From assembly GCF_055900595.2 (NCBI RefSeq), contig NZ_CM148325.1: a stretch of DNA of 64,000 bases, one strand, 5' to 3'. Of the stretch, positions 7,085 through 61,160 are shown piece after piece. The first letter of the stretch is position 1. Each line of letters opens with the position of its first letter. The notes under the pieces were generated by a model. That model saw only the letters and a program-made list of their open reading frames with translations. It searched no databases and was not told where the DNA came from. The position numbers and the translations under genes were made by a program.

Positions 7085-7440
7085 AGCAAAAAAGCGCCTT
7101 TAGGGCGCTTTTTTTACATTGGTGGGTCGTGCAGGATGACTCGCTTCGCTCGCCCTTCGGGCCGTCGCCGCGAGCGGCTCCGTTGTTTCGCTACGCTCAA
7201 CTCGAACCTGCTGCAGGTTCGAATCTTTGAATATCCCAGATAGCAAAAAAGCGCCTTTAGGGCGCTTTTTTACATTGGTGGGTCGTGCAGGATGACTCGC
7301 TTCGCTCGCCCTTCGGGCCGTCGCCGCGAGCGGCTCCGTTGTTTCGCTACGCTCAACTCGAACCTGCTGCAGGTTCGAATCTTTGAATATCCCAGATAGC
7401 AAAAAAGCGCCTTTAGGGCGCTTTTTTTACATTGGTGGGT
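7085..7440. repeat. tandem repeat, about 157 bp unit, a little over two copies, downstream of lysQ
   Basis: The unit starts (agcaaaaaagcgcc...) at 7085, 7242 and 7398. Each unit holds an A-run/GC-hairpin/T-run (agcgcc-ttta-gggcgct) and a 17 nt copy of the tRNA-Lys 3' end (tggtgggtcgtgcagga). Confidence 0.7.
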
Positions 7441-7508
7441 CGTGCAGGATTCGAACCTGCGACCAATTGATTAAAAGTCAACTGCTCTACCAACTGAGCT
7501 AACGACCC
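7433..7508 (-). tRNA. lysQ: tRNA-Lys (UUU)
   Basis: Reverse complement matches the E. coli tRNA-Lys sequence through the CCA end; seventh gene of the operon. Confidence 0.95.
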
Positions 7509-8068: not shown

Positions 8069-8144
8069 TGGTGGGTCGTGCAGGATTCGAACCTGCGACC
8101 AATTGATTAAAAGTCAACTGCTCTACCAACTGAGCTAACGACCC
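8069..8144 (-). tRNA. lysW: tRNA-Lys (UUU)
   Basis: Identical tRNA-Lys sequence on the minus strand. Confidence 0.95.
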
Positions 8145-8146
8145 GG

Positions 8147-8222
8147 TGGTGGGTGATGACGGGATCGAACCGCCGACCCCCTCCTTGTAAGGGAGGTGCT
8201 CTCCCAGCTGAGCTAATCACCC
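8147..8222 (-). tRNA. valT: tRNA-Val (UAC)
   Basis: Identical tRNA-Val sequence on the minus strand. Confidence 0.95.
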
Positions 8223-15960: not shown

Positions 15961-17529
15961 TTAGCGTGCCGGCTGAGTAGTCGTGGAAGACTGCTCAAAG
16001 TGATAGCGACCGGTTTTCAGGCTGCTTGGGCCGAGGCGTGCAAACTTGAACATTAAGAACAATTCTGCCACCAGGAACAGGGTATACAGGCCACAAATCA
16101 GCACCATCGAGAAGATGAGGTCGCCTGCGGTCAGTGACGAGTTCGCTACAGCTGTCGGCAGCACTTCACCGATAGCCCAAGGTTGGCGACCATATTCAGC
16201 CACGAACCAGCCCGCTTCTACAGCAATCCACGGCAGCGGAATACCGTACAGTGCGGCGCGCAGCAGCCATTTTTTCTCGCCAATACGGTTGCGGATGACA
16301 CTCCAGAAAGAGAGCGCGATGATTGCCAGCAGCAGGAAGCCACACGCCACCATGATACGGAACGCGAAGTACAGCGGCGCTACACGTGGAATGGAGTCTT
16401 TGGTTGCCTGTTGAATCTGCGCTTCAGTTGCATCCGCCACGTTTGGCGTATAGCGTTTCAGCAGCAGACCGTAACCGAGGTCTTTCTTCATGCTATTGAA
16501 CTGGTCACGAACCGCCTGGTCAGTAGAACCAGAACGCAGTTGCTCGAGCAGAGAGTACGCCTTCATCCCGTTACGGATGCGTTCTTCATGCTGCACCATC
16601 AGCTCTTTCAGGCCGATAACCGGGGTATCCACGGAACGCGTTGCAATGATGCCCAGCGCGTAAGGGATCTGGATCGCAAATTTGTTCGTCTCCTCTTCCT
16701 GATCAGGAATGCCGAACAGAGTAAAGGCAGCAGGTGCAGGTTGCGTTTCCCACTCGGCTTCAATAGCAGCCAGTTTGGTTTTCTGCACGTCGCCCATTTC
16801 ATAACCAGATTCATCACCCAGAACAATAACAGACAGAACGGCAGCCATACCGAAGCTGGCAGCGATAGCAAAGGAGCGTTTAGCAAAGGCGAAGTCACGA
16901 CCTTTCAACATATACCATGCGCTGATACCGAGGATGAACATCGCGCCAGTCACATAACCAGACGCTACAGTGTGAACGAATTTCACCTGAGCAACCGGGT
17001 TAAGCACCAGCTCGGAGAAGCTCACCATCTCCATACGCATAGTTTCAAAGTTGAAATCGGATGCGATTGGGTTTTGCATCCAGCCGTTCGCAACCAGAAT
17101 CCACAGTGCGGACAGGTTTGAACCAAGCGCCACCAGCCAGGTGACACACATATGCTGAACTTTACCCAGACGATCCCAACCGAAGAAGAACAGACCTACA
17201 AAGGTGGATTCGAGGAAGAAGGCCATCAGACCTTCGATTGCCAGCGGCGCACCGAAGATATCCCCTACATAGTGGGAATAGTAAGACCAGTTAGTCCCGA
17301 ACTGGAACTCCATGGTCAGACCGGTTGCCACACCCAGAGCGAAGTTGATACCAAACAACTTGCCCCAGAACTTGGTCATATCTTTATAAATCTGTTTGCC
17401 GGAAAGGACGTAGACCGTTTCCATAATGGCCAGCAGGAACGCCATACCGAGCGTCAGTGGCACAAAAAGGAAGTGGTACATCGCGGTCAAGGCAAACTGT
17501 AAGCGCGACAGTTCGACTATATCTAACAT
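15961..17529 (-). CDS. cydA: cytochrome bd-I ubiquinol oxidase subunit I
   Basis: Matches remembered CydA ([20 protein letters not shown]...); the ORF extends one codon further to 17532. Confidence 0.95.
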
Positions 17530-17866
17530 CATGACTCCTTGCTCATCGCATGAAGACTCCGAGAGTGAACCCCGTTAGAAAGGGTCACACGCATGCCCCA
17601 ATACAAAATTATTTGCTCGCCTCTATCGCTGTCTTTTCCTCAAAAGTGGAAAAGACAATGATAAAAAAGTTACAAATATGTTAATGAATAAACCAAATTG
17701 ATCCCGTAATTATATTACGCCGCAAAATCCTTACAATAAACAGGTTTTTATTGAGCAAATTTGCATTTTTCGACAGTGATCAATTTATAGCGAAATTGTC
17801 ACGCCCCCACCAATTTGATCTACGACAATTTATCGTGTTTTGCAGATTTTTTTCAAGAATTAAAAA

Positions 17867-17880
17867 TTGATTAATATCAA
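17867..17880 (-). promoter_or_regulatory. FNR-consensus site in the cydAB upstream region
   Basis: TTGAT-taat-ATCAA, an exact match to TTGAT-N4-ATCAA, about 340 bp upstream of the cydA start; cydAB is a known FNR/ArcA-regulated operon. Confidence 0.45.
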
Positions 17881-18332
17881 AATCAATCGAATATGTTAAT
17901 TATGTATAAATCATAGACCATTGGTAATTTTATTGTTAATTTATTGTGAAATATTTACGTAACACAATTATTACAATAAAAAGACATAGATAAAAAACCA
18001 GTGTTTTATTTAACAGAATCGCCTTATCAACTTTTTATAATACCAATTGATTAGAGTAGCCAATTTGTTGCTATTTTACATAACATATTTTTATCAAAGT
18101 TAATTGATTGTTGCCTTTATGAGCATCGCCGTAAGACCGCCATGTTATTGTTTCATTTGTAATAATCACCAATAAGTATCGATGAGAGAGATATCGCTTA
18201 ACAGAGGCGACTGTGTCTGCATGAACACAGGCACTTTCGTCTGATAAACGAAAAATGAGCGATTTTTGCAAGTTAGTTTTTCTATAGCCGGGTACGCTGA
18301 GCGCCTCGCTTGATTACAATGAGGTTGCTGCC

Positions 18333-19277
18333 ATGGGTCTTGATAATATAGGTTATGTTGTCAATCGCTTCTCTGGTTGGCCATCAAATGATCCTCTAAA
18401 AACAGATAACGAATCAATGACATCACCCGTGACTGTGCAGGTAATAAAGTTGATTGCCGCCATCCTTGACCCACATCGGATAGTCGTTGGTATCGATACA
18501 CTTTATACAACGCAGCGCAAAACATTTACCTCAGAGGGTCAACAACTCATTGAATCAGCATTGAAAACACTTAATGTGATGAATTTAAATAACCTGGAAA
18601 CAGATCGCGATGAGGAGGGTAACTATCTGGCTTTTGGATATAACGTTGACACTCCTGACAGAATAACCGTTTCTGCTTATAATGAAAAAAAACCTTTCTG
18701 TTATGGCCAATGTCTTTTAATACAGGATGAAGAACCAGATTTATTTAACCTGGTAAAAATTAAAACCTTTGAAGCCAGGCATAATTATGTTTCTAAATTG
18801 ATGAGCGATCCGGAATTTATGTTTAAATTCAGTTATAGCACCCAACAAAATAGATTAGAACCTCATCTTCTGGTTCCCACTTATTTCCCTCTAAAAACAA
18901 ACCAACCGGTTACGCTAGAGGATGTACTGATACTTTATCGTTTCTTTAAAATGAATGGCGATTTTAATATATTAACATCAGATGAATACATGAGTATCAT
19001 GACACCTCTGATGAAGTGTGAGCGTAGTGTCCACGACCATAACAGGTATGTGACGGGCAAAGATGCTCTTCTTCTGGACAATCCTCCGTCTGGTAACCAG
19101 ATATATTTCCATATTTCCCCTGACGAATCAGCAACACTTGTCCTTTATTTTTCAGACAATAACCTTGAATCCTTCGTCTTTGAAAATGATATTCCGAGCC
19201 AGTATCGACATTTCAAAATGTTTACCAATTTAGCACTAGTTATTGATCAGTTAACCGACGCCAATCAAATACTTTAA
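18333..19277 (+). CDS. hypothetical protein (314 aa), AT-rich, no recognisable domain
   Basis: ATG start with GAGG about 10 nt upstream; codon composition visibly more AT-rich than flanking core genes; I recognise no motif. Confidence 0.5.
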   Translation: MGLDNIGYVVNRFSGWPSNDPLKTDNESMTSPVTVQVIKLIAAILDPHRIVVGIDTLYTTQRKTFTSEGQQLIESALKTLNVMNLNNLETDRDEEGNYLAFGYNVDTPDRITVSAYNEKKPFCYGQCLLIQDEEPDLFNLVKIKTFEARHNYVSKLMSDPEFMFKFSYSTQQNRLEPHLLVPTYFPLKTNQPVTLEDVLILYRFFKMNGDFNILTSDEYMSIMTPLMKCERSVHDHNRYVTGKDALLLDNPPSGNQIYFHISPDESATLVLYFSDNNLESFVFENDIPSQYRHFKMFTNLALVIDQLTDANQIL

Positions 19278-19356
19278 TTTTCTATACAGCCCTGTGTAAA
19301 ATATTGCTAATCAGTGCCCGGGGTTGATTTTTATTCCTCACGGTGATATTTAAATC

Positions 19357-19779
19357 ATGACCCCATCTCAGCTCTCTTTTAATACTCTTCCTGTCAATGC
19401 AACATGCACTTCAGAGATAACAGTAAACACACAAAAATTCTCTGACATCCTCTACTCAGTGGGGTATTCCCTAAAGGATCTGGCTTATCTGAGCAGATGT
19501 CTTGCATCATTACACCCGACACTCGCCAAAAACATTTATGAAACGGAAAATCTCAGCGATCAAAAATTACTTTATATAGATTGCCGTAGTACAAATGAAA
19601 TCAAGATAAATATCTTTTTTGGTCAGCAACGAGAAGGATTAATTGAAATTAGTTCTGACACAGTCATTTTTTCGATACTGTCTTCATTGATTGACTCAGC
19701 TATTTCTGAACATCGACATCAAATCACCATTAACGATTCAAATAATTCTGAACTATTTTATGAGGATTATACTGATTAA
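19357..19779 (+). CDS. hypothetical small acidic protein (140 aa)
   Basis: ORF 80 bp downstream of the previous ORF on the same strand; AT-rich; acidic C-terminus; no recognisable motif. Confidence 0.45.
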   Translation: MTPSQLSFNTLPVNATCTSEITVNTQKFSDILYSVGYSLKDLAYLSRCLASLHPTLAKNIYETENLSDQKLLYIDCRSTNEIKINIFFGQQREGLIEISSDTVIFSILSSLIDSAISEHRHQITINDSNNSELFYEDYTD

Positions 19780-20321
19780 ATCCACTCTGTGCGAACCTGT
19801 CCTGCATTTATGCCAGAAGTATTAGAATCTTTGATTAACGTTACTCGTACTGGTAGCACCTTCATGTGCCTCTCTTTTTTACGAACAATCAAAAGAACTA
19901 ACAAAGGGCATAATTCGTATAAATCATTAACCATTTGTTATATTCAACATTTTTTTACATTAAGCAGAGATGAATTGCAGTGAAATTCAAGTTAAATTTT
20001 ACAAAATGTATTACTCATGGCTAAAAAATCTCCCCAAAATGCAAATTAGAAGTTGATCACAATTATCTCAATACATCAAATAAAGTTAATTTTAAAAATT
20101 TAACATTCATGACATTAGTTGACATAACACGCTGAATTAAAATGAGAATTTAAAAACACACTTTAAACAATCATTTCCCGAAAGACATTTTGAAAATAGA
20201 TCAATTGCAACATTACGGTCAGATAAAGACACTCCTCTGATATTAAACCTGTGCCGTTATGAACGGCCATAAATACGACGTGTGTAACTTAATTTACTCT
20301 CTGTCTTACAAAGGATTACCC

Positions 20322-20771
20322 ATGAAGAAAGCAACACTTGTGATTGGCGTTATTGGCGCGGACTGCCATGCAGTAGGCAATAAAGTTCTGGACCGCGTTT
20401 TTAGCAACCATGACTTCAGAGTCATTAATCTGGGCGTAATGGTCAGCCAGGACGAATATATTGATGCTGCCATTGAAACTGGCGCTGACGCGATTGTCGT
20501 CTCCTCTATCTATGGGCATGGCGATATCGATTGTCTGGGCATGCGCGAACGCTGCATCGAGCGTGGGCTGGGTAACATCCTGCTCTATGTGGGCGGTAAC
20601 CTGGTGGTCGGAAAACATGACTTCGCTGACGTGGAAACCAAGTTCAAAGAGATGGGATTTGATCGCGTCTTTTCCCCAAGTCATGACTTAGAAGATGTTT
20701 GTCAGCTGATGGCCCACGATATCAACCAACGTCATGACGTTGATACTCGCATTCTTGAAGAGGCAATCTGA
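20322..20771 (+). CDS. glmS: glutamate mutase sigma (S) subunit, B12-binding
   Basis: [24 protein letters not shown]... aligns with the clostridial GlmS/MutS B12-binding subunit (DxHxxG-type motif in [10 protein letters not shown]); ORF track begins 21 codons earlier. Confidence 0.85.
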
Positions 20772-22159
20772 TGCAAATCGTCTCTGTCGATATTGGATCG
20801 ACGTGGACCAAAGCAGCCCTCTTCACCCGGGAGGGGGACGCGTTAACGTTGGTTAACCACGTTCTGACCCCAACCACCACCCATCATCTGGCGAAGGGGT
20901 TTTTCTCCAGCCTGGACCAGGTGTTAAACGTAGATGATGCCCTCCCCCTGTTAAACAGTGGTGAGGTTGCATTGAAGTATTCCTCCTCTGCCAAAGGTGG
21001 GCTGGCGGTTGCCGCAATGGGATTAGTGCCTTCTATCACTCTGGAAACCGCGAAAGTAACCGCTCACTCTGCGGGTGCTAAAATTGCGCAATATTACGCC
21101 TACAAGCTGAACCGCCGTGATATCCAGGCACTGGAAGAAACGCAGCCCGATATTCTCTTGTTCACCGGCGGCACCGACGGCGGAGAAGAAAGCTACGGAC
21201 TGAATAACGCCCGTGTGCTGGCAGAATCCAAACTCGACTGCGCCATTATTTATGCCGGAAACCGGGATATTCAGGACAAGGTGCAGGAGATCCTCGGGCA
21301 TAAAGACCTGACCATCGTCGACAACGTTCTGCCCGATCTTGACCATCCGAACCCTTTAGCTGCACGCCAGGCTATCTGCGACATATTCCTTAAACGCATC
21401 GTTAAAGGGAAAGGGCTGGATGTCATTGTTGATAAAACAGGCGAAGAACCAATGCCGACACCATGGACGGTCTTTGAACTGGTTAAGGCAATCAGTAACG
21501 TCGATCACAGCTGGAAAGAGTTCATGCTGATCGACATGGGCGGCGCAACCACCGATGTCTATTCCGCCTGTGCCAACACGCTCTCGCCCGACACTGTTTT
21601 ACATGGCGTACCGGAACCCTTCGTAAAACGGACGGTGGAAGGCGATCTGGGAATGCGCGTCTCGGCAATGGTGGTTGGTGAAAGTGCGAAAGAGTTAGTC
21701 AGTGTGAATTTTGCTCAGCAACCCGCACAGTTGGACGCTTTTTATCATTACCTCCGTCATCTAGTCGCTCATCCCGACTACTTACCCGCGAATGCAGATG
21801 AAAAATATTTCGATACCGTCCTGGCCGGACTGTGTGTGGGTTATGCCACCGAAAGACATGCGGGCACCAAAAAAGAGGTCTGCACCTGCGTCGGCAATGT
21901 CGATTTACAGATGGGACGTGACCTGACAACCGTGCGTAAAGTCGTGGGTTCCGGCGGATGGCTCTCGCGTGCCAGTCAGTTCGATATGCATCGCTGGTTG
22001 AAATACCGCGAGTTAAACGACGACGGTAAACGCATTCTCTTACCGACCGAATTTGAATATTACCGCGATTCCCGGGGGCTATTACCACTGCTGGCAAACG
22101 TCGCCAGAGTCGATCCGCTGGCCGCCGCGCGCACCAGTATTCAATGCTTAACCCTATAA
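20771..22159 (+). CDS. glmL: glutamate mutase-associated protein GlmL/MutL
   Basis: 462 aa ORF between the S and E subunit genes, start overlapping the glmS stop; same position and size as clostridial glmL. Confidence 0.75.
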   Translation: MQIVSVDIGSTWTKAALFTREGDALTLVNHVLTPTTTHHLAKGFFSSLDQVLNVDDALPLLNSGEVALKYSSSAKGGLAVAAMGLVPSITLETAKVTAHSAGAKIAQYYAYKLNRRDIQALEETQPDILLFTGGTDGGEESYGLNNARVLAESKLDCAIIYAGNRDIQDKVQEILGHKDLTIVDNVLPDLDHPNPLAARQAICDIFLKRIVKGKGLDVIVDKTGEEPMPTPWTVFELVKAISNVDHSWKEFMLIDMGGATTDVYSACANTLSPDTVLHGVPEPFVKRTVEGDLGMRVSAMVVGESAKELVSVNFAQQPAQLDAFYHYLRHLVAHPDYLPANADEKYFDTVLAGLCVGYATERHAGTKKEVCTCVGNVDLQMGRDLTTVRKVVGSGGWLSRASQFDMHRWLKYRELNDDGKRILLPTEFEYYRDSRGLLPLLANVARVDPLAAARTSIQCLTL

Positions 22160-22177
22160 CAATTAAGGCTGCAATCA

Positions 22178-23623
22178 ATGGAACTTCGAAATAAGAAATT
22201 AACCCATGACGAATTCATGACCGAGCGGCAACAGGTATTGAAAACCTGGGAAACCGGCAAGGATGTTGAAAACTTTGAAGATGGCGTTAAATACCAACAA
22301 ACCATTCCTGAGCATAAACGCTTCTCTCTTGCCCTGCTGAAAGCAGACAAGGAAGGTAAAACCCTTAGCCAACCGCGCGCAGGCGTGGCGCTGATGGACG
22401 AACACATCGAACTACTGAAAACACTACAAGAAGAGTGCGATCTGCTGCCGAGCACTATCGATGCATATACCCGTCTGAATCGGTACGAAGAAGCGGCTGT
22501 AGGGATTAAAAAATCCATCGAAGCCAGAACCTCTAAACTGAACGGTTTACCGGTAGTTAACCACGGCGTCGCAGCTTGCCGTCGCCTCACCGAAACTCTG
22601 CAAAAACCGCTACAGATCCGCCACGGCACGCCAGATGCGCGTCTGCTGGCTGAAATCTCGATGGCCAGCGGCTTTACCAGTTATGAAGGCGGCGGCATTT
22701 CCTACAATATTCCGTATGCCAAGCGCGTAACGCTGGAAAAATCGATCCGCGACTGGCAGTACTGCGATCGTTTAATGGGGATGTACGAAGAACACGGGAT
22801 CCGCATCAACCCCGAACCGTTTGGCCCACTAACGGGTACGCTGATCCCGCCGTTTATCTCGCACTCTATCGCAATAATCGAAGGCTTGCTGGCACTGGAA
22901 CAGGGTGTGAAGTCTATCACCGTTGGTTATGGTCAGGTCGGTAGCCTGACGCAGGATGTTGCGGCGATCCAGTCTCTGCGGGAACTTGCACACGAATACT
23001 TTCAGAGCTATGGCTATACCGACTACGAATTAAGTACCGTGTTTCACCAGTGGATGGGCGGCTTTCCGGAAGACGAATCGAAAGCGTTCGCCATTATCTC
23101 CTGGGGTGCTGCCGTCGCGGGGATGTCTGGTGCTACCAAAGTCATCACCAAAAGTCCGCACGAAGCCTGGGGCATCCCGACTGCTGCTGCCAACATTCAG
23201 GGGCTAAAAGCCTCCCGCCAGATGCTCAACATGGTCAACGAGCAGAAATTCCCGCCGTGCCCGGCGGTTGAACTAGAAATTGAACTGATTAAGAGCGAGG
23301 TTCGCGCGGTACTGAACAAAGTGTTCGAACTGGGTAATGGTGATATTGCGCGCGGTACGGTGCTGGCATTTGAAGCGGGCGTACTGGATGTGCCGTTTGC
23401 GCCAGCCGCCTGCAACGCAGGCAAAATTCTTCCGGTCCGTGACAACACTGGCGCGATTCGCGTACTGGAGGCCGGAGCCGTTCCATTGCCAAAAGATATT
23501 CTCGACCTCCACCACGATTACGTTGCTGAACGCGCGCGCTTTGAAGGACGCCAACCGACATTCCAGATGGTTGTAGATGACATCAATGCTGTATCCCACA
23601 GTAAATTAATAGGAAGACCATAA
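22178..23623 (+). CDS. glmE: glutamate mutase epsilon (E) subunit
   Basis: 481 aa ORF, size and position matching clostridial GlmE; flanked by glmS/glmL and methylaspartase. Confidence 0.85.
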   Translation: MELRNKKLTHDEFMTERQQVLKTWETGKDVENFEDGVKYQQTIPEHKRFSLALLKADKEGKTLSQPRAGVALMDEHIELLKTLQEECDLLPSTIDAYTRLNRYEEAAVGIKKSIEARTSKLNGLPVVNHGVAACRRLTETLQKPLQIRHGTPDARLLAEISMASGFTSYEGGGISYNIPYAKRVTLEKSIRDWQYCDRLMGMYEEHGIRINPEPFGPLTGTLIPPFISHSIAIIEGLLALEQGVKSITVGYGQVGSLTQDVAAIQSLRELAHEYFQSYGYTDYELSTVFHQWMGGFPEDESKAFAIISWGAAVAGMSGATKVITKSPHEAWGIPTAAANIQGLKASRQMLNMVNEQKFPPCPAVELEIELIKSEVRAVLNKVFELGNGDIARGTVLAFEAGVLDVPFAPAACNAGKILPVRDNTGAIRVLEAGAVPLPKDILDLHHDYVAERARFEGRQPTFQMVVDDINAVSHSKLIGRP

Positions 23624-24864
23624 TGAAAATAAAACAGGCCCTTTTTACCGCTGGCTACTCCTCATTCTATTTCGATGATCAGCAGGCGATAAAAAACGGA
23701 GCGGGTCACGACGGTTTTTTTTATACCGGGGAGCCAGTAACACAGGGGTTTAACGCCGTACGTCAGGCCGGGGAGTGCGTTTCGGTTCAGTTGATTCTGG
23801 AAAACGGTGCGGTCGCCGTAGGCGACTGTGCTGCCGTACAGTATTCCGGGGCAGGTGGTCGCGATCCACTGTTCCTCGCAGAGCACTTTATTCCGTTCCT
23901 CAACGACCATATCAAGCCATTACTGGTAGGCCGCGATGTGGATGCTTTCCTGCCGAATGCCCGTTTCTTCGACAAATTGCGTATTGACGGCAACTTGCTA
24001 CATACCGCCGTGCGCTACGGATTATCACAGGCGCTGCTTGATGCTACCGCGCTGGCAACCGGCCGTCTGAAAACTGAAGTGGTCTGTGATGAATGGCAGT
24101 TGCCACGCGTGGCGGAATCCATTCCATTATTTGGTCAGAGCGGCGACGATCGATATATCGCTGTCGATAAGATGATCCTTAAGGGCATCGACGTGCTGCC
24201 CCATGCGCTGATTAATAACGTCGAAGAGAAACTGGGCTTTAAAGGTGAAAAACTGCGCGAATATGTCCGCTGGCTGTCGGATCGCATTCTGAGCAAGCGC
24301 ACCAGCGCACGCTACCACCCTACCCTGCACATCGATGTATACGGCACTATTGGTCTGATCTTCGATATGGATCCGCTTCGCTGTGCGCAATACATCGCCA
24401 GTCTGGAAAAAGAGGCGCAAGGCCTGCCGCTCTACATTGAGGGGCCGGTCGATGCCGGTAACAAGCCCGATCAAATCCGCCTGCTGACCGCGATTACCAA
24501 AGAGCTGACGCGCCTCGGTTCCGGCGTGAAAATCGTGGCCGATGAATGGTGTAACACCTACCAGGATATTGTTGATTTCACTGATGCCGCCAGTTGCCAC
24601 ATGGTGCAAATCAAAACCCCGGATCTGGGCAGTATTCACAACATCGTCGATGCAGTTCTTTATTGCAACAGCCACAGCATGGAAGCGTACCAGGGCGGCA
24701 CCTGCAATGAAACTGATGTCAGTGCCCGCACCTGTGTCCACGTCGCCCTTGCTGCTCGCCCCATGCGTATGCTGGTAAAACCAGGGATGGGCTTTGACGA
24801 AGGCCTCGATATCGTCTTCAACGAAATGAATCGTACTATCGCGCTGTTGCAGGCTAAGGATTAA
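23623..24864 (+). CDS. mal: 3-methylaspartate ammonia-lyase (methylaspartase)
   Basis: 413 aa enolase-superfamily-like ORF; start overlaps the glmE stop (TAATG). Confidence 0.85.
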   Translation: MKIKQALFTAGYSSFYFDDQQAIKNGAGHDGFFYTGEPVTQGFNAVRQAGECVSVQLILENGAVAVGDCAAVQYSGAGGRDPLFLAEHFIPFLNDHIKPLLVGRDVDAFLPNARFFDKLRIDGNLLHTAVRYGLSQALLDATALATGRLKTEVVCDEWQLPRVAESIPLFGQSGDDRYIAVDKMILKGIDVLPHALINNVEEKLGFKGEKLREYVRWLSDRILSKRTSARYHPTLHIDVYGTIGLIFDMDPLRCAQYIASLEKEAQGLPLYIEGPVDAGNKPDQIRLLTAITKELTRLGSGVKIVADEWCNTYQDIVDFTDAASCHMVQIKTPDLGSIHNIVDAVLYCNSHSMEAYQGGTCNETDVSARTCVHVALAARPMRMLVKPGMGFDEGLDIVFNEMNRTIALLQAKD

Positions 24865-24867
24865 CAA

Positions 24868-26238
24868 ATGGCTCGTTCTTTTAAAGTCTTATCGCCAACG
24901 GCAATCCTCGGGTATGGATTCCCGGAAGAGAGCTTCCGCAAAGCGATGGCAGAATCGCCCGATCTGATCGCCGTTGATGCAGGCTCTTCCGATCCTGGCC
25001 CCCACTACCTCGGGGCGGGCAAACCGTTTACCGATCGCGCAGGGGTCAAGCGCGATCTACGCTATATGATCACCGCAGGCGTGCAAAATAATATACCGGT
25101 AGTGATCGGAACGGCCGGCGGTTCTGGTGCCGCTCCACACCTGGAGTGGTGCCGAGAAATAATTCATGAGATTGCCCGGGAAGAGCACCTCGCGTTCTCG
25201 ATGGCGCTGATCCCGGCAGACGTTGACAAAGCCATCGTCCACCAGGCGCTGGATAACGGCAAAATCACGGCGCTGGATTTTGTCCCGCCGTTAACCCACG
25301 ACGCGATTGACGAAAGTACGTATATCGTCGCGCAAATGGGCATCGAACCCTTCCAGCAGGCGCTGAAAGAAGGCGCGCAAGTGGTGCTGGGCGGGCGCGC
25401 TTACGACCCGGCCTGCTTTGCTGCGCTACCGATCATGCAAGGCTTTGATGAAGGTCTGGCGCTGCATTGTGGGAAAATCCTTGAATGCGCGGCAATCGCC
25501 GCAACGCCCGGCTCAGGCTCTGACTGTGCGATGGGCATCATTGATGACAACGGCTTTACGCTGAAGACATTTAATCCGAAGCGTAAATTTACCGAAACGT
25601 CAGCGGCTGCACACACACTGTATGAGAAATCCGATCCCTACTTTCTGCCAGGACCTGGCGGCGTGCTAAACCTGAAAGGTTGCACATTTAAAGCGATCAA
25701 TGATGGCGAAGTTTACGTCAGCGGTTCTAAGCATGAAGAAACGCCCTATGCCCTGAAACTGGAAGGTGCGCGGCGGGTGGGTTTCCGCTGTTTGACCATC
25801 GCCGGAACGCGCGACCCGATCATGATCGCCGGGATCGATAACATCATCGATGAAGTCAAAACCAGCGTTTCGCGTAATCTGTCCTTAGACGATGACAGCA
25901 TTCGCATCAATTTCCACCTGTACGGCAAAAACGGGGTGATGGGCGACCATGAACCGATGCAAACTGCCGGGCATGAGCTGGGGATTGTCCTTGATGTAGT
26001 TGCACCGACCCAGGATATTGCCAATAGCGTTTGCTCGCTGGTGCGCTCTACCATGCTGCACTACGGCTATGAAAACCGCATCGCTACCGCAGGCAACCTG
26101 GCGTTCCCGTTCTCCCCTTCTGATATCCAGGGCGGGCCGGTATACGAATTTTCCATATATCACCTGATTGAAGCCAACGACGCTCTGCGTTTTGATTTCC
26201 ATATTGAACAGGTGACGCCAGAAGGAGTTCAGGCATGA
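24868..26238 (+). CDS. uncharacterised protein, possibly DUF1446 (AtuA-like) family
   Basis: 456 aa ORF 3 nt after mal; the family assignment is from memory of the DUF1446/DUF4387 gene pairing and is unverified. Confidence 0.55.
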   Translation: MARSFKVLSPTAILGYGFPEESFRKAMAESPDLIAVDAGSSDPGPHYLGAGKPFTDRAGVKRDLRYMITAGVQNNIPVVIGTAGGSGAAPHLEWCREIIHEIAREEHLAFSMALIPADVDKAIVHQALDNGKITALDFVPPLTHDAIDESTYIVAQMGIEPFQQALKEGAQVVLGGRAYDPACFAALPIMQGFDEGLALHCGKILECAAIAATPGSGSDCAMGIIDDNGFTLKTFNPKRKFTETSAAAHTLYEKSDPYFLPGPGGVLNLKGCTFKAINDGEVYVSGSKHEETPYALKLEGARRVGFRCLTIAGTRDPIMIAGIDNIIDEVKTSVSRNLSLDDDSIRINFHLYGKNGVMGDHEPMQTAGHELGIVLDVVAPTQDIANSVCSLVRSTMLHYGYENRIATAGNLAFPFSPSDIQGGPVYEFSIYHLIEANDALRFDFHIEQVTPEGVQA

Positions 26239-26552
26239 AACAGTCAATTGTCTCACTGGCGCAAGTCATTCGTTCGAAAAATGCCGGACCTTACGAACTG
26301 GTTTTAGATATTTTATTTAAAACCAAAGAAAACTATGAGCGAGTAAAATCATCAGGGCAATTAACCCCAGAACTGATTGCGCGCTTATATCATGTTGAAC
26401 CTGACTTTATTCATCGTATTGTCTGGTTTGATCCTTCTAACGCAGTAAAAATTGTCATGCCACGAGATATTATCTCCGGGAATGTAGGTGACAATGATGT
26501 CTATGGCGCACAGCAACATGCACCTTTATTAAATATGAGTTTCGATTTGTAA
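26235..26552 (+). CDS. uncharacterised small protein, possibly DUF4387 family
   Basis: 105 aa ORF whose ATG overlaps the upstream stop (ATGA); contains an RSKNAGP-like segment I associate with DUF4387. Confidence 0.5.
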   Translation: MKQSIVSLAQVIRSKNAGPYELVLDILFKTKENYERVKSSGQLTPELIARLYHVEPDFIHRIVWFDPSNAVKIVMPRDIISGNVGDNDVYGAQQHAPLLNMSFDL

Positions 26553-26712
26553 AAATCCGAACACTTTTAGCCAACTGACATCCCGTCACTTATTGCAGCT
26601 CAACACTTCAGCTATTTGTAAGGTTGTTATAGCAGGTAGATGCCTGAATCTCTATTCAGGCATCCACTTCTCCTGATTCTGATTTATCGCCGTGCACCTG
26701 ATGGAGGAAAAA

Positions 26713-27993
26713 ATGAAGAAAATAAGTTTAACCACGATGATTCTTTTGGCGCTGGTACTTGGAATGATTATCGGCGTAGTGCTCAATAACACTGCTTCAC
26801 CGGAAACAGCAAAACTCTATGCGCAAGAAATATCGATATTCACGACGATTTTCTTACGACTGATAAAAATGATTATCGCTCCGTTAGTGGTCTCTACCCT
26901 GGTGGTAGGTATTGCTAAAATGGGCGATGCCAAAGCCCTTGGTCGTATTTTTTCTAAAACACTCTTTTTATTTATTTGCGCCTCATTGCTGTCAATTGCC
27001 TTAGGCTTGATAACGGTAAATTTCTTCATGCCAGGCACAGGAATTAATTTTGTTGCACACGGTGCCGAAACCACCGGAGTGGTCGCGTCAGAACCCTTTA
27101 CACTAAAAGTATTTATTTCGCATGCTTTCCCCACCAGCATTGTCGATGCCATGGCGCACAATGAAATTTTGCAAATCGTGGTGTTCTCAATTTTCCTCGG
27201 CTGTAGCCTGACGGCGATTGGTGAGAAAGGCAGCGCCATCGTTCACGCCTTAGATTCGCTGGCACATGCCATGTTAAAGCTCACTGGCTACGTCATGCTC
27301 TTCGCTCCCCTGACCGTATTCGCCGCTATTTCAGCATTGATTGCTGAACGAGGACTGGCAGTTATGGTGAGCGCCGGGATCTTTATGGGTGAATTTTATT
27401 TCACCATGTTATTACTTTGGGTGCTGCTTATCGGTCTGGCCATCGTTTATGTCGGCCCCTGCATCAGACGCCTGACCCGCGCCCTTTCTGAACCCGCCCT
27501 GCTGGCATTTACCACATCCAGTTCTGAAGCTGCTTTTCCGGGAACGCTTGAAAAACTGGAGCAATTTGGCGTTTCCCCCAAAATTGCCAGCTTTGTCTTA
27601 CCCATTGGCTACTCATTTAATCTCGTTGGATCAATGGCCTACTGCTCCTTCGCCACAGTTTTCATCGCCCAGGCCTGCAATATCCATTTATCCATCGGTG
27701 AGCAAATCACCATGCTGTTGATCCTGATGTTGACCTCGAAAGGAATGGCTGGCGTACCACGCGCCTCAATGGTGGTTATCGCCGCCACGCTCAACCAGTT
27801 CAATATTCCGGAAGCGGGGCTGATCTTGCTGATGGGCGTTGATCCGTTCCTTGATATGGGGCGTTCCGCGACAAACGTCATGAGCAACGCAATGGGCGCT
27901 GCGATGGTGAGTCGGTGGGAAGGCGAACATTTCGGCGAGGGTTGTCGGGGTAAAGCATTAAAACCCAATGAATCGAACGTTGCTCTGCCCTGA
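26713..27993 (+). CDS. dicarboxylate/amino acid:cation symporter (GltP-like)
   Basis: Start placed at MKKISLT with GGAGG 5 nt upstream; polytopic; conserved DAACS segments (IKMIIAPLVVSTLVVGIA, SSSEAAFP, PIGYSFNLVGS) resemble GltP. Confidence 0.8.
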   Translation: MKKISLTTMILLALVLGMIIGVVLNNTASPETAKLYAQEISIFTTIFLRLIKMIIAPLVVSTLVVGIAKMGDAKALGRIFSKTLFLFICASLLSIALGLITVNFFMPGTGINFVAHGAETTGVVASEPFTLKVFISHAFPTSIVDAMAHNEILQIVVFSIFLGCSLTAIGEKGSAIVHALDSLAHAMLKLTGYVMLFAPLTVFAAISALIAERGLAVMVSAGIFMGEFYFTMLLLWVLLIGLAIVYVGPCIRRLTRALSEPALLAFTTSSSEAAFPGTLEKLEQFGVSPKIASFVLPIGYSFNLVGSMAYCSFATVFIAQACNIHLSIGEQITMLLILMLTSKGMAGVPRASMVVIAATLNQFNIPEAGLILLMGVDPFLDMGRSATNVMSNAMGAAMVSRWEGEHFGEGCRGKALKPNESNVALP

Positions 27994-28100
27994 GGGGGAT
28001 CTTAAGAAATCAGAAGCCAATGACTACGCATTTTTATAAGCCGGATCATGAAGTTAGACGGCAATTAAGTAACACTAACGTTTAAGGTGAAAAGTGAAAT

Positions 28101-29753
28101 ATGTCCAAACCATTTATCTGGCAAGAACCGTTTCTACAAAATAAAGACGGTACAGAATATACATTAATTAGCGATCAACATATTACAGTAACGGAATTAG
28201 ACGGCGAAGAAGTAATAAAAATCGCTCCTGAAGCATTAACGCTGCTTGCCCGGCAGGCATTTTATGAAGCCTCTTTTTTCTTACGTTCCGCTCATTTGCA
28301 ACAGGTCGCCAGCATTCTTAACGATCCGCAGGCCAGCAGTAATGATAAATACGTTGCGTTGCAGTTATTACGTAATGCTGAAGTCTCAGCAAAAGGGGTA
28401 TTACCCAACTGTCAGGATACCGGCACCGCAACTATTGTTGCCAGTAAAGGGCAACAGATATGGACGGGAGGTAACGACGCTGAAGCCTTAAGCAAAGGCA
28501 TTTACAGTACTTTCCAGGAAAATAATCTGCGCTTTTCACAAAATGCGCCGCTGGATATGTATACCGAAGTCAATACGCAAACCAATCTTCCGGCGCAGAT
28601 TGATATCAGCGCTGTCGCTGGTAATGAGTACCATTTTCTCTGTGTTAATAAAGGGGGCGGCTCCGCCAATAAAGCTGCACTTTATCAGGAAACCAAATCC
28701 TTATTGCAACCAGAAAAACTGACCGCATTTTTAATCGACAAAATGAAATCGTTGGGCACGGCCGCCTGCCCGCCCTACCACATCGCCTTTGTCGTCGGAG
28801 GGCTTTCAGCCGATCAAACCTTAAAAGTTGCCAAGCTGGCCTCTACGAAATATTACGACAATTTGCCCACCAGCGGAAACGAGCAGGGACAAGCATTCCG
28901 TGATATTGAGCTGGAAAAAGCGTTGCTCGAAGCCAGTCAGCAATTTGGTATTGGTGCGCAATTTGGGGGTAAATATTTCGCTCATGATATTCGCGTCATT
29001 CGTCTGCCGCGTCACGGTGGCTCCTGCCCGATAGCTATGGCGCTCTCCTGTTCTGCCGATCGCAATATCAAAGCCAAAATTAACAAGCACGGTATCTGGC
29101 TGGAAAAACTCGAACACAATCCGGGGCAATATATTCCAGCCTCATTGCGGGAAGAAAATCACTCGCTACATGTACACCTGGATCTAAACCGTCCGTTGCG
29201 TGACGTGATGCAGGATCTCGCCAGATTACCGGTAGGTACCCGCGTGTCGTTAAGTGGTCCCATCGTAGTGGCGCGCGATATCGCCCACGCAAAAATAAAA
29301 GCGCGGCTGGATAGCGGCGAATCGATGCCGGATTACCTGAAGCATCATATTGTCTATTACGCTGGCCCGGCGAAAACACCGGAGAACATGGCCTGCGGTT
29401 CACTGGGTCCAACCACGGGCGGTCGAATGGACGGTTATGTCGAAACCTTCCAGGCGGCTGGCGGCAGTCTGGTAATGTTATCGAAAGGTAACCGCAGCCA
29501 GCAGGTCACCGATGCCTGTCACAAACATGGCGGCTTCAATCTGGGAAGTATTGGCGGTGCAGCTGCGTTACTGGCGCAAGAATATGTCAAAAGTCTGCGT
29601 TGCCTGGAATACCCGGAGCTGGGTATGGAGGCGGTGTGGATGATGGAAGTGGAAAATCTGCCCGCATTCATCCTGGTTGATGATAAAGGCAATAATTTCT
29701 TTAGCCAGTTTGAGCAGCAACACCGCTGCGCCAGTTGCCCTGCGGGACATTAA
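28101..29753 (+). CDS. fumD: class I fumarate hydratase paralog, probable mesaconase
   Basis: 550 aa ORF alignable along its length to remembered E. coli FumA ([34 protein letters not shown]); the fumD name follows a published O157:H7 mesaconase description, recalled from memory. Confidence 0.8.
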
Positions 29754-29762
29754 GGAAAATGA

Positions 29763-30365
29763 ATGGAAGCGCGAATTTCAACTGAACGGCATGTGCAGCG
29801 CCAGCAGAAATTGAAGGAACAGGTCGATACGCGCGTCGCGGCGGCGATAGAGAAAAAAGGGATCTTGATTGTTTTCACCGGCAACGGCAAAGGGAAATCC
29901 ACTGCCGCGTTTGGTACTGTAACGCGCGCGGTGGGCCATGGCAAAACGGTGGGGGTTGCGCAGTACATCAAGGGGCAATGGGACAACGGCGAATACAATC
30001 TTCTCCAGCCGCTGGGAGTGGAGTTTCATATTATGGGAACCGGTTTTACCTGGGAGACACAGAACCGGCAAGCGGATATCGATGCGGCGAAAGAGGTCTG
30101 GTCGGAAAGCAAACGGATGCTGGCTGACAAGCGTTACGACTTAGTGGTGCTTGATGAGCTCACCTATATGCTGGCTTACCATTATCTGGATACAGAAGAA
30201 GTGATCACTTCTCTGCAAAACCGTCCGGCACAACAAAGTGTCATTGTCACCGGACGCGGTTGCCACAGTCAGATATTAAAAATGGCGGATACGGTAAGTG
30301 AAATCCGCCCCGTCAAACATGCTTTTGATAACGGCATTCAGGCCCAGCCGGGGATCGACTGGTAA
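29763..30365 (+). CDS. cob(I)yrinic acid a,c-diamide / cobalamin adenosyltransferase (BtuR/CobA-like)
   Basis: 200 aa ORF with GILIVFTGNGKGKSTAAFG P-loop and overall similarity to remembered E. coli BtuR; a paralog located in the B12-dependent operon. Confidence 0.85.
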   Translation: MEARISTERHVQRQQKLKEQVDTRVAAAIEKKGILIVFTGNGKGKSTAAFGTVTRAVGHGKTVGVAQYIKGQWDNGEYNLLQPLGVEFHIMGTGFTWETQNRQADIDAAKEVWSESKRMLADKRYDLVVLDELTYMLAYHYLDTEEVITSLQNRPAQQSVIVTGRGCHSQILKMADTVSEIRPVKHAFDNGIQAQPGIDW

Positions 30366-30368
30366 TAA

Positions 30369-30396
30369 CTGCGCCTGGCATCCCGCCAGGCGCAGG
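30369..30396. terminator. bidirectional hairpin between the BtuR-like gene and the convergent LysR gene
   Basis: ctgcgcctggc-atccc-gccaggcgcag perfect inverted repeat followed by gtttt; occupies the 33 bp gap between the two stop codons. Confidence 0.55.
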
Positions 30397-30398
30397 TT

Positions 30399-31304
30399 TT
30401 ACATCTCCTGCGGTACGACCGATTTCGCCAGCAACCATTCACGAAATTGCTGCAAGTGCGGAGAGTCAGACTTCTCTTCCTGCCACGTCATAATAAAACG
30501 ATTACCGGTACGAATAGGCACATCACAGGGAATCACCATATCGCCACTATCCAAATCATGTTGAATAGCGAACCGTGGTAACAGCGCCACGCCGAGATTA
30601 GAGCGCACGGCGGCAATCAGCATTGAAAGCAAATCGAAACGTGGTCCGTTATTGACCAGCGGACTGCTAACGCCAGATAAAGCAAACCACTCTTCCCAGC
30701 CAGTAATACGGGTGCTTTGATGCAGAAGTGGTAACTCAGTAAGCAGTTCTGCCACTGACAGTTTTTGATCGGACATTGCAAGCAAACTGCCGCTGCATAC
30801 CGGCAAAATCTCCTCTTCAAAGAGATATTCTACTTCCGCCCAGGGCGCGCAAAAATTTTCGCGCATAATGACAGCATCGTACTCCCGATTAAGAAAATCG
30901 CCGTTATTAGCTAAAGAATGAATATTAACAATAATATCGGGATGTAACTTTGTGAATTCATGTAAATTTGGGATTAACCAGTGGGTACTAAAAGTAGGAT
31001 TAACGGCAAGTTCAATAACCTGAACCGTAGGCTGCCATGTCATAATCGTATTGGTATCGCGCTCCAGCTTATTTAATGTTTCTTTTACTATCCCCAGGTA
31101 ATACTTCCCTGCATCATTAAGAAAAATGCGTTTTTTAGAGTGTGAAAATAACGGAGTATGTAAAAATTCCTCCAGCGCACTTACTTGTCTGAATACAGCA
31201 CTTTGGGTTAACGCTAACTCCTCTGCCGCTCTGGTATAACTTTCATGTCGTGCGACGACCTCAAAAGTCACCAGCAGCTCCGTTTTAGGTATTTTTCCTC
31301 GCAT
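30399..31304 (-). CDS. LysR-family transcriptional regulator
   Basis: N-terminal HTH (FEVVARHESYTRAAEELALTQSAVFRQVSALEE) and LysR substrate-binding body; start placed at MRGKIPK (ORF track starts 10 codons earlier). Confidence 0.8.
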   Translation of the reverse strand: MRGKIPKTELLVTFEVVARHESYTRAAEELALTQSAVFRQVSALEEFLHTPLFSHSKKRIFLNDAGKYYLGIVKETLNKLERDTNTIMTWQPTVQVIELAVNPTFSTHWLIPNLHEFTKLHPDIIVNIHSLANNGDFLNREYDAVIMRENFCAPWAEVEYLFEEEILPVCSGSLLAMSDQKLSVAELLTELPLLHQSTRITGWEEWFALSGVSSPLVNNGPRFDLLSMLIAAVRSNLGVALLPRFAIQHDLDSGDMVIPCDVPIRTGNRFIMTWQEEKSDSPHLQQFREWLLAKSVVPQEM

Positions 31305-31893
31305 AATGCCGTCCGTGAAAAAATAACAATTCAAAAATTATTTTATAAAAAACAGTAGCACTAATGAATATCATAATTCAAATAAACAAACCAGTCAGCT
31401 ATATGTCTAACCAGGAAAATAAAGTGACAATAATCCTAAAACAGGAATTTCACCTCAGTTATCCGCATGCAATACTTTAAAGCTATTATTGCAAGAATAT
31501 TATTCATATACATGAATATACTCTAAATAAGTCAAGTTGCAGGAAGGGAACAAATAATGAATATCCAGAAGCTTACATAAGTAAGTGACCTGGGTGAGCG
31601 AACATCGATGCAGCACATGCAACTTGAATTATGACAAGTATACAATGATAAATTTATATACCCTATGTTATATATTATCTATGTCCGGTTAAATTGAATG
31701 AGTCATAGCCTTAAAAGACTTCACAAAAGATAATTCCTCTTTAACAATAAGCCAGATTTACCACTTGTAAAACTTGCTATCGCTGCATACACTACGCGCG
31801 TTTTCTTTCCCTTTTGCTGGCTGCTGACCGGAAAGACAAAATTACCCTCGCAATACAGGGGGTTGATTAACGTCTATATTTCAGGACAGCGTT

Positions 31894-33291
31894 ATGCATC
31901 ATCTTTCAAGGCTTGATAAAGCCTTTCTGCGCAAAGGGATCCAACTTTCCCGCGCCAACAATATTGTTTCATTATGTCGTCCATCAGGAGCCAGTGCCCG
32001 CGTACTGCTGCCGGACGAACTGCCGCTGGAAGAAAAAGCAGTGACACAACTGCTTGATTTTGCAGATGTGAAGCTACCAGACCACCCAGGTTATGTGCGC
32101 CAGACGTGCGCGACGCCAGATTTTCATCCCGGCAATGGCGTCCCCGTTGGCGCGGTGGTGGCCTCAACGCCGGATTTAGTCATTCCCGCCGCCATCGGCA
32201 CCGATATTTCTTGTGGCATGCGGCTGCTGACGACCGGATTAACACTTGAGCAAGCCGAAGCGCATAAAGACGTCATCGCTCAGCGGTTAACGCAAGTGCT
32301 ACTGCAAAATGAGCGCGATGTTCCGTTATCCGCACAGGCGTTCACCGCGCTTTTTGATGGCGGACCGGCAGATTGCATGTCGGCCTTGCCATCAGCAGGT
32401 CTCTGGACACGTACAAATATCCCCCGGATGACGCAAGAGATTGACCGCTGCATTGGGCTTAAAGAGCATAACAGTCATTCGCGTTATGCCCCACCCGCCC
32501 TGCTGGCAACGGACCGCGCATTACTCCGCGATCCTTGTCTTGGTACGCCGGGTTCAGGTAATCATTTTATTGAACTTCAGGTCGTTGATAACGTGGTTGA
32601 TCGCCATGTGGCCTGGCAACAAGGGCTGAAAACAGGCGATATTGTGGTGATGATCCACAGTGGATCACGAGATGTTGGCTTTTACGTCGGAAGACGCTGG
32701 ATGGATCGCGCCCGTGCTGAATGGCCCACCGGACATAAACATCCACAAAGCGGGTTATATGGTCTGGCAGGCGGACTGGCGGAGGAATATCTACAAGCGA
32801 TAGGAATGGCGGCGCGTTACGCGTGGTTAAATCGCGTGACAATTGCCGAAATGGTGCGCGTATGTCTTGCCAATCTCTTTCATCAGGACAATTCGCATCT
32901 GGTGGTGGATGTGCCACATAACATCATCCTTCGCGAGCATGAAATGAATATTCATCGCAAAGGCGCAACACCGGCACGAGTGGGCAATCTGGCGTTAATC
33001 CCCGGTTCAATGGGCGATTATTCGTGGCTTGCGGTTGGTTGCGGCAACCCGGAGTGGCTGTGGTCATGCAGTCACGGAGCAGGACGCAGCCAGCGTCGGC
33101 AGGCCATGCGCTCACGCGCGACTGAAGAGTCAACGCTGCCGTGGCAATGCGTCACATTGCGCGAAGAACGACGTCTTGAAGAAGCGCCAGCGGCTTATAA
33201 AGATATTGGTCCGGTTATCGAAGCTCAACAAGAAGCCGGATTAATTCAGCCAGCGGTCAGATTTCGACCGTGGTTAACGTTTAAAGCATAA
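31894..33291 (+). CDS. RtcB-family RNA ligase paralog
   Basis: 465 aa ORF with RtcB hallmarks (GTDISCGMRLL, GSGNHFIELQ, HSGSRDVG, CSHGAGRS); N-terminus longer than remembered E. coli RtcB, so the start is uncertain. Confidence 0.75.
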   Translation: MHHLSRLDKAFLRKGIQLSRANNIVSLCRPSGASARVLLPDELPLEEKAVTQLLDFADVKLPDHPGYVRQTCATPDFHPGNGVPVGAVVASTPDLVIPAAIGTDISCGMRLLTTGLTLEQAEAHKDVIAQRLTQVLLQNERDVPLSAQAFTALFDGGPADCMSALPSAGLWTRTNIPRMTQEIDRCIGLKEHNSHSRYAPPALLATDRALLRDPCLGTPGSGNHFIELQVVDNVVDRHVAWQQGLKTGDIVVMIHSGSRDVGFYVGRRWMDRARAEWPTGHKHPQSGLYGLAGGLAEEYLQAIGMAARYAWLNRVTIAEMVRVCLANLFHQDNSHLVVDVPHNIILREHEMNIHRKGATPARVGNLALIPGSMGDYSWLAVGCGNPEWLWSCSHGAGRSQRRQAMRSRATEESTLPWQCVTLREERRLEEAPAAYKDIGPVIEAQQEAGLIQPAVRFRPWLTFKA

Positions 33292-33388
33292 AAAAGGCCA
33301 TCATACGATGGCCAACCATGTCGAAACCGACAGCCCTTCGCCATTCCTGTAGAGGGAAGCGGCGAGGGCTATTTCTTATTACAGATAT
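33292..33388 (-). ncRNA. sdhX: candidate SdhX sRNA (sucD 3'UTR plus terminator)
   Basis: About 75 nt 3'UTR after the sucD stop ending in a ggccatcgtatgatggcc hairpin plus U-tract on the minus strand; SdhX is known to derive from the sucD 3'UTR, but I cannot verify the sequence from memory. Confidence 0.4.
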
Positions 33389-59492: not shown

Positions 59493-59576
59493 TACTGCTC
59501 CTGAACGGTTTACAGGAGTAAGTGTAGACGGCAGTATTGAAAAAACGAAACGAATAAATGAATTCGGTAAAGAAAT

Positions 59577-59984: not shown

Positions 59985-60026
59985 TTTATAGTGCCTTTAT
60001 TTGCTATAATTTTTTCTGAAATAACA

Positions 60027-60494: not shown

Positions 60495-60496
60495 AA

Positions 60497-60637: not shown

Positions 60638-60820
60638 CCGGGTACGACTGCCAGTGGTTTTAACAGATTTACGCTCACCGTTACGTATCCTGCCACCACT
60701 CAGGTTGCAGACGCGGCAGTCACAGCCTTGACGGTGTTGAAACTAAAGTTCAGGTGATAGTCTGATGTTCATAGTTTGAGCATTATCCCCTGACAGAATA
60801 AAATCAAGCAGTGTCAATGA

Positions 60821-61078: not shown

Positions 61079-61160
61079 ATCATCCAGTTAAATTTCAGTA
61101 GTAAATCGTCTATCAAAAAAAGATGAAATTAACATTCATAAATTTATTACAATATGAAAA

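Follow-up and report, generated by a model that had tools for sequence, protein, structure and literature searches.

An AT-rich two-gene cassette between cydA and glmS: a candidate old ORFan pair of the genus Escherichia

ORFans of Escherichia coli are AT-richer than the genome, conserve their coding capacity, and show higher nonsynonymous and similar synonymous diversity (Yu & Stoltzfus 2012, PMC3514957). They are generally shorter than other genes, and their commonest pattern of occurrence is a single genome (PMC3514957). Here we describe two adjacent open reading frames (ORFs), A and B, in a 64,000-nucleotide stretch of contig NZ_CM148325.1 (RefSeq assembly GCF_055900595.2), referred to below as the window. 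The pair is located between cydA (minus strand, end at 17529/17532) and glmS (start at 20322) of the glutamate mutase (glm) operon, and both genes are annotated as 'hypothetical protein' in RefSeq, in O157:H7 as well as in NZ_CP098223, the chromosome of an E. coli dog isolate from Korea that is 99.9% identical to the window. Like the ORFans of Yu & Stoltzfus and of van Passel et al. (2008, PMC2275313), A and B lack homologues beyond a narrow clade, exceed the genome in AT content, have conserved their coding capacity, and combine raised nonsynonymous with normal synonymous divergence. The cassette shows all three ORFan features tested, namely a restricted clade, a real coding gene, and AT-richness with fast protein divergence. 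It differs from most ORFans in that A is large (314 amino acids) and that the pair is old, being common to E. coli and E. albertii and present in 21% of complete E. coli genomes. We favour, with moderate confidence, the explanation that A-B is an old ORFan cassette restricted to Escherichia, and neither a component of the methylaspartate pathway nor a mobile addiction or defence module.

The first-pass annotation of this DNA had reported ORFs of 314 and 140 amino acids on one strand between the cydAB regulatory region and the glm operon, and both our coordinates and the RefSeq coding sequences (CDSs) agree with it. The two genes are close neighbours as described, although the gap between them measures 79 nt and not 80. 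The pair had also been called far more AT-rich than the core genes. Indeed, the G+C contents of A (0.375) and B (0.352) are the two lowest among 50 large non-overlapping ORFs of the window, the next-lowest values being 0.434-0.445 and the other large ORFs covering 0.43-0.57. Local G+C content is 0.34-0.42 over A-B versus ~0.53 in the flanks, and the glm genes have values of ~0.48-0.55. The second product is small and acidic as previously noted (isoelectric point 4.61), and the first is acidic too (4.84). No hydrophobic segment fit for a signal peptide or a membrane helix was found in either protein.

Given the base composition of the pair, chance alone would leave 314 codons open with a probability of ~7.5e-10 and 140 codons with one of ~8.6e-5, so both ORFs are more than chance. 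Gene A contains no indel or internal stop in 10 alleles, comprising that of the window, five others from E. coli and four from E. albertii, and the encoded proteins are only 62-64% identical between the two species. The ratio of nonsynonymous to synonymous differences (pN/pS), calculated by the Nei-Gojobori method, equals 0.44 for A between the window and O157 and 0.48-0.52 between E. coli and E. albertii. For all of these comparisons pN is significantly lower than pS (Fisher test, p from 4e-4 to 4e-9), and each third of the gene yields a ratio of 0.38-0.56. Within E. coli, B has a pN/pS of 0.43 (p = 0.008). Since A remains open and free of indels with pN below pS, the alignments identify it as a genuine gene, under weak but significant purifying selection along its whole length.

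In contrast, the neighbouring genes glmS, glmL, glmE and cydA have pN/pS ratios of 0.00-0.20. Synonymous divergence between E. coli and E. albertii amounts to 0.37-0.41 in A and 0.44-0.50 in glmS, glmL and glmE, and nonsynonymous divergence to 0.19-0.20 in A versus 0.014-0.058 in the glm genes, which is 4-15 times higher in A. Nucleotide identity of the window to most E. coli is ~90% over A-B and 97.5-98% over glm. We attribute the lower identity of A-B to weak protein constraint and not to a separate transfer history. The lineage of the window is itself rare and divergent: identity to it over the region reaches 99% or more in only ~10 of the 5426 complete E. coli genomes, and the synonymous divergence of cydA between the window and O157 is 0.08. 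A partial B protein of 106 aa from strain TW10509, a member of cryptic clade I, shares 97% identity with the B protein of the window.

The search for protein families was uniformly negative. Pfam produced no match for the window proteins or for any member of the multi-allele alignments of A and B. NCBIfam and PHROGs had none for A or B, PADLOC-DB 2.0.0 had none for the alleles of the window, of O157 and of E. albertii even at an E-value cut-off of 5, and the PDB had none by sequence or by profile. The only matches seen across the family searches were at chance level (E 0.12 to 1.6). These results bear out the earlier remarks that no catalytic or structural motif is recognizable in either protein and that the two are the least explained protein-coding genes of the window; the profile searches proposed at that stage assign neither to a characterized family. 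Structure prediction was of little help. AlphaFold2 models reached a mean predicted local distance difference test (pLDDT) score of 42.2 for A and 43.5 for B and were too poor to use, and the best Foldseek matches of these low-confidence models to the PDB (E 0.03-0.3, template modelling score of at most 0.26) were treated as meaningless. We also considered A and B as paralogues that share a strand-strand-strand-helix module (residues 97-147 and 255-313 of A, 69-120 of B). This candidate was unsupported: hhalign detected no significant match between A and B or among six of their sub-segments, the only 'hits' being overlaps between the chosen segments.

Relatives of A and B were found almost entirely within one genus. 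A word-indexed search of 5.8 billion proteins retrieved only Escherichia sequences and one Shigella fragment, and a HMMER profile of A matched 14 of 1.84 billion cluster representatives, all of them short fragments of A itself. A scan of 100,044 genomes, one per species, located A in E. albertii, Escherichia sp. MOD1-EC7003 and two contigs of metagenome-assembled genomes, and nowhere else. The latter copies are 87-88% identical to the E. coli gene and presumably represent binning artefacts. No copy of A or B was detected in phages by tblastn. Three 'plasmid' matches come from records of 0.73-4.9 Mb, which are mislabelled chromosomes, and no copy was found on true plasmids. As far as these sequence collections reach, A and B are ORFans restricted to the genus Escherichia. 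The presumed locus tags of A and B, reconstructed from FumD = ECs0757, were not found mentioned in the literature searched. The description of the methylaspartate cluster by Kronen & Berg (2015, PMC4682846) does not discuss A or B, its text does not contain the word 'hypothetical', and FumD carries the only ECs07xx locus tag cited in it.

The pair occurs in 1135 of 5426 complete E. coli genomes, and the glm operon likewise in 1135. A 3.6-kb query that extends from cydA through A, B and glmS to glmL has an unbroken match over 80% or more of its length in 1135 genomes; thus, all E. coli carriers share the cydA-A-B-glmS arrangement. When a spread sample of 25 carriers was inspected, both genes were annotated as intact CDSs in 24. 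The possibility raised in the first-pass annotation that the ORFs might be disrupted in most strains does not apply to E. coli, where nearly all carriers keep them intact. Variants of B with a C-terminal frameshift (160 aa) form minor clusters in E. coli, with about 100 distinct sequences. The sole disrupted carrier of the sample, NZ_CP182371 (E. coli Br_112_kylling), has ISVsa5, an IS4-family insertion sequence, in A and downstream of B, and its A is annotated as two pseudogene pieces.

Comparison with other taxa separates the pair from the glm island. In K-12, homology to the window ends at 17911 and resumes at 33284, with mngRAB in between. Salmonella enterica has the glm cluster next to cydA without A-B: homology stops at 17908 and resumes at 20165, the matches upstream of glmS being confined to 20165-20246 and to the sequence from 20312 on. 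In E. marmotae, glm also adjoins cydA, and positions 17400-18184 and 19926 onward are shared with the window, with the segment between them replaced by 325 bp whose Smith-Waterman score against the cassette is no better than that of shuffled sequences. The glm cluster of Enterobacter asburiae adjoins cob genes and likewise lacks A-B. Conversely, the E. albertii genome L004 has A next to cydA and no glm; its homology to the window covers A, enters B and picks up again only at sucD, beyond a 258-aa gene. E. albertii homology to the window resumes at 19917. In E. coli 536, homology extends to 18169 and is followed by a tetratricopeptide repeat (TPR) gene before sucD. Neither A nor B has left a remnant that tblastn, blastn or Smith-Waterman alignment with a shuffle control could detect in the genomes of K-12, E. 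coli 536, E. marmotae, Salmonella or Enterobacter.

Since glm is found without A-B in three taxa and A without glm in L004, A-B is a separable cassette of ~1.74 kb. By this comparison of endpoints it is a discrete unit in the cydA-glmS spacer and not a part of the glm island, and it does not accompany the glm cluster wherever that cluster is found, as a member of the operon would. Its placement at the left edge of an inserted island, proposed earlier, is correct relative to K-12, which has mngRAB in place of this DNA, but the pair is not integral to the glm island. The survey suggested at that time, of whether the pair always travels with glm, has a divided outcome: the two always occur together in E. 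coli and are separable in other taxa.

In Escherichia, the interval between sucD and cydA (17912-33283) is a hot spot of replacement, and at least four different contents were seen there: mngR-mngA-mngB in K-12, a TPR-repeat gene in 536, A-B with glm and a LysR gene in the window strain and O157, and, in one E. albertii, A with the 258-aa gene, whose product is outer-membrane-protein-like. In the window, an RtcB-family gene (~31871-33292, plus strand) lies between the LysR gene and sucD; O157:H7 is without RtcB and passes from LysR to sucD directly.

Decay of the pair is seen outside E. coli. The B of three E. albertii genomes is interrupted in frame by a stop at codon 36 and carries a further early stop at codon 134, and in L004 and the type strain only a 31-aa remnant is recognizable. 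Altogether, B is dead in all five sampled E. albertii genomes, and A is intact in four of them; the A of the type strain has a frameshift near residue 185. Neither gene is whole in Escherichia sp. MOD1-EC7003, with an enterobacterial repetitive intergenic consensus (ERIC) element in A. A can do without B as an antidote or a chaperone, since it stays intact in genomes that lack a functional B. On the pattern of intact and broken alleles, B is an optional partner that has been kept in E. coli and repeatedly lost elsewhere. The decayed region of MOD1-EC7003 contains ERIC-related copies at 7345-7472 and ~8087-8213 (numbering of that locus, not of the window), one of which interrupts A. One copy carries the ERIC core GTAAGCTCCTGGGGATTCAC, which does not occur in the window. 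The window has a diverged element similar to ERIC or intergenic repeat units at 31516-31642, between the LysR and RtcB genes, that is related to the ERIC copy of MOD1-EC7003.

The explanation that we favour would begin with a ~1.74-kb piece of AT-rich DNA, foreign in appearance, that came to lie in the spacer separating the cydAB control region from the glm operon. This cassette would have been in place before the split of E. coli and E. albertii and would have been inherited vertically at one locus since then. A would be a soluble, acidic cytoplasmic protein that is translated and retained by weak purifying selection, and B would serve as its optional partner. The constraint on A is uniform and moderate, with no strongly conserved catalytic core, which would suit a protein of the binding or adaptor type rather than an enzyme. 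AT-richness, together with a site between the cydAB control region and an anaerobic operon, suggests that the cassette may be silenced by H-NS and expressed only under gut-like or anaerobic conditions. Both the silencing and the binding role draw on general knowledge of xenogeneic silencing. What the sequence comparisons themselves show is the anatomy of the pair, its narrow distribution, its selection pattern, its separability from glm and the dispensability of B.

Several points weigh against this explanation. What is said here of the function, expression and H-NS binding of A-B is inference only, drawn from sequence. At pLDDT values as low as those obtained, a known fold could be hidden in either protein, and a small catalytic motif is possible in A, for example among the invariant residues C127, H150, C229, H234 and D235; the comparison of A covers three lineages, too few to resolve positive selection or constraint at single sites. 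Every E. coli carrier has A-B together with glm (1135/1135), a pattern that could reflect a functional link within this lineage as well as physical linkage. The erosion seen in three sister lineages also fits a gene pair on its way out.

Three other explanations appear about equally probable, each having only a small chance. The first is a conflict system of an undescribed family (toxin-antitoxin, abortive-infection or anti-phage), in which one protein is the effector and the other its neutralizer or sensor. The locus resembles type II toxin-antitoxin and two-gene anti-phage modules: its two genes are co-directional, the second product is small and acidic, and the pair evolves fast. Its presence is patchy, with repeated loss in sister lineages, and the interval around it is hypervariable, at least four alternative cargos having been seen there. 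The persistence of A without B excludes A as a toxin with B as its antidote and leaves room for the opposite assignment. A toxin B with an antitoxin A encoded upstream would predict that B is lost first, as is the case in E. albertii. However, no toxin, antitoxin or defence domain was found in any allele by PADLOC, Pfam or NCBIfam, and a 79-nt spacer with a 314-aa upstream partner is atypical of type II modules. Furthermore, typical systems of this kind are mobile, whereas A-B occupies one fixed chromosomal locus, between cydA and glmS in all 1135 carriers, with metabolic neighbours although the sucD-cydA interval is variable; it is inherited vertically with a synonymous divergence equal to that of its neighbours, and has no copy on true plasmids, in phages or outside Escherichia. 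The earlier analogies to effector/chaperone, toxin-antitoxin and phage-defence pairs have thus gained no support (no PADLOC match, no mobile copy, a dispensable B), and the accompanying caution that the sequence allows no choice among them was justified.

The second, which we also regard as unlikely, holds that A and B are decaying remnants of a once-functional acquired element that have ceased to add to fitness and persist in E. coli for lack of time. The pN/pS ratios are high (0.4-0.55) compared to those of the neighbours (0.00-0.2), and the losses comprise stops in B and a frameshifted A in E. albertii, both genes broken in MOD1-EC7003 with the ERIC insertion, replacement of the cassette in E. 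marmotae, and, within E. coli, the 160-aa frameshift clusters of B and the ISVsa5 insertion in one genome. On the other hand, pN of A is significantly below pS in every comparison and each third of the gene, both genes are intact in 24 of the 25 sampled E. coli carriers, and neutral decay would not allow an AT-rich ORF of 945 nt to stay open and free of indels at a pS of ~0.4. The third, improbable to the same degree, is an unrecognized Escherichia-specific two-protein system whose folds have no known relatives and which acts as a new kind of defence or addiction module or as a factor in the interaction with host or niche; it would have been retained throughout the history of E. coli and E. 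albertii, and about a fifth of E. coli have it, the sampled O157:H7 genomes among them.

A role for A-B as an Escherichia-specific accessory (regulator, adaptor or assembly factor) of the glm pathway or of cydAB expression is very unlikely. With the methylaspartate cluster (PMC4682846) the pair shares adjacency, strand, evolutionary age and co-inheritance in E. coli and E. albertii, and in E. coli the two are contiguous in 1135 genomes, with no terminator-like site found between B and glmS. Nevertheless, complete glm islands lack A-B in Salmonella, E. marmotae and Enterobacter, A has been retained where glm is deleted (L004), and no DNA-binding or other regulatory domain is detectable. Composition and evolutionary rate are also sharply unlike those of the glm genes (G+C content of 0.35-0.38 versus ~0.48-0.55, with amino acid change 4-15 times faster).

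Finally, one or both proteins might be substrates of type III secretion, through the enterocyte effacement locus (LEE) or E. coli type III secretion system 2 (ETT2), with B possibly a chaperone or second effector. In common with effectors and class I chaperones of the Tir/CesT type, a larger protein is encoded beside an acidic one of ~140 residues, in AT-rich DNA restricted to a genus with attaching-effacing pathogens and including E. albertii. The only hint is the polar N-terminus of B: by the S/T/N/P/Q fraction of the first 25 residues, a crude heuristic and not a validated secretion predictor, B ranks first among the 50 window ORFs (64%, the next being 0.40), and A (36%) is tied third-highest, with 8 of 50 ORFs at or above its value. 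Carriers have been isolated from blood, urine, pigs and wastewater; pathotypes from blood, urine and pigs usually lack LEE, and these sources suggest that many carriers are without LEE and that the distribution does not obviously follow it. We consider this explanation highly unlikely, because A and B match no effector or chaperone family or domain, the predicted secondary-structure order of B (three helices, three strands and one long helix, at low confidence) is unlike that of class I chaperones, blood, urine and pig isolates of E. coli have both genes intact, and the cassette is not in a prophage or an effector exchangeable locus. Moreover, the small gene is inactivated in five of five sampled genomes of E. 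albertii, a species to which PMC4700944 ascribes a LEE system.

The information gained on A-B is evolutionary and not functional. If A has a specific role, it would represent a genus-restricted function present in ~21% of E. coli, including O157:H7, O55:H7 and O145:H28 strains, and its site, with the cytochrome bd-I control region on one side and an island for anaerobic glutamate fermentation on the other, makes it a candidate factor of niche or host adaptation. The pair also provides a clean case for the question of how bacterial ORFans originate (PMC12315717): gene A is large and datable, predates the divergence of E. coli from E. albertii and is missing from the corresponding site of Salmonella, and occupied and unoccupied versions of the cydA-glmS locus can be compared across species. 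For the time being, A and B should not be annotated as glm pathway, toxin-antitoxin, defence or effector genes.

Table 1. Coordinates of the A-B cassette, its components and the adjoining spacer features in the window
Feature	Position	Strand	Remarks
A-B cassette	18185..19925	+	AT-rich, Escherichia-specific; present in E. coli carriers and E. albertii; unrelated sequence in its place in E. marmotae
ORF A	18333..19277	+	314 aa, 945 nt, ATG start; acidic, predicted soluble, no detectable family; real gene by alignment, weak purifying selection
A-B spacer, 79 nt	19278..19356	+	No terminator-like site
ORF B	19357..19779	+	140 aa, ATG start; acidic; polar N-terminus rich in S/T/N/P/Q; intact in E. 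coli, decayed in other Escherichia lineages
Terminator-like G+C-rich hairpin with T-rich tail	18213..18234	+	Consensus match only; just within the left boundary of the cassette, ~100 nt before A
AT-rich spacer, Escherichia-specific	17912..18184	.	Present in E. coli 536 and E. marmotae (both without A-B); not in K-12 or Salmonella
AT-rich region upstream of glmS	19926..20321	.	Travels with the glm operon; outside the cassette
Direct repeat D1, copy 1 (28 nt)	17904..17931	+	Overlaps the K-12/Salmonella homology breakpoint
Direct repeat D1, copy 2 (28 nt)	19917..19944	+	23/28 identical to copy 1; overlaps the right boundary of the cassette

Features around the genes are listed in Table 1. A Shine-Dalgarno-like GAGG is located 8 nt before the ATG of A, and B is preceded only by a weak GGTGA. 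The promoter of A probably lies in the AT-rich spacer to the left of the cassette; no convincing sigma-70 match was found on the plus strand of this spacer. The counts of promoter and terminator matches around the pair were no higher than in shuffled sequence, and no Rfam match was obtained in 17400-20400. The longest ORF for glmS spans 20259-20771 (170 aa), but RefSeq and the homologues in other genera use the ATG at 20322 (149 aa, MKKATLV...), and the 21 extra N-terminal codons are probably not translated.

The two D1 copies are 2013 nt apart and bracket A-B, and their 23/28 identity was reached by only one of 60 block-shuffles. Copy 1 overlaps the K-12 and Salmonella endpoints (17908-17911), and copy 2 the positions at which homology resumes in E. 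albertii and E. marmotae (19917-19926). Their resemblance is lower in the main E. coli lineage, at about 20/28 by hand count, and copy 1 is unrecognizable in E. albertii. D1 could be an old attachment (att)-like site, a microhomology used in rearrangement, or a coincidence.

Two observations concern other parts of the window. The pxpC gene (5-oxoprolinase subunit C) is annotated as frameshifted in NZ_CP098223, its counterpart in the window being at ~53320-54253 on the minus strand. Near ybfA (window ~59000-61500), NZ_CP098223 has a fragment of IS630, several small genes annotated as hypothetical and one annotated as encoding an immunity protein of contact-dependent growth inhibition, and these may represent an orphan immunity cluster.

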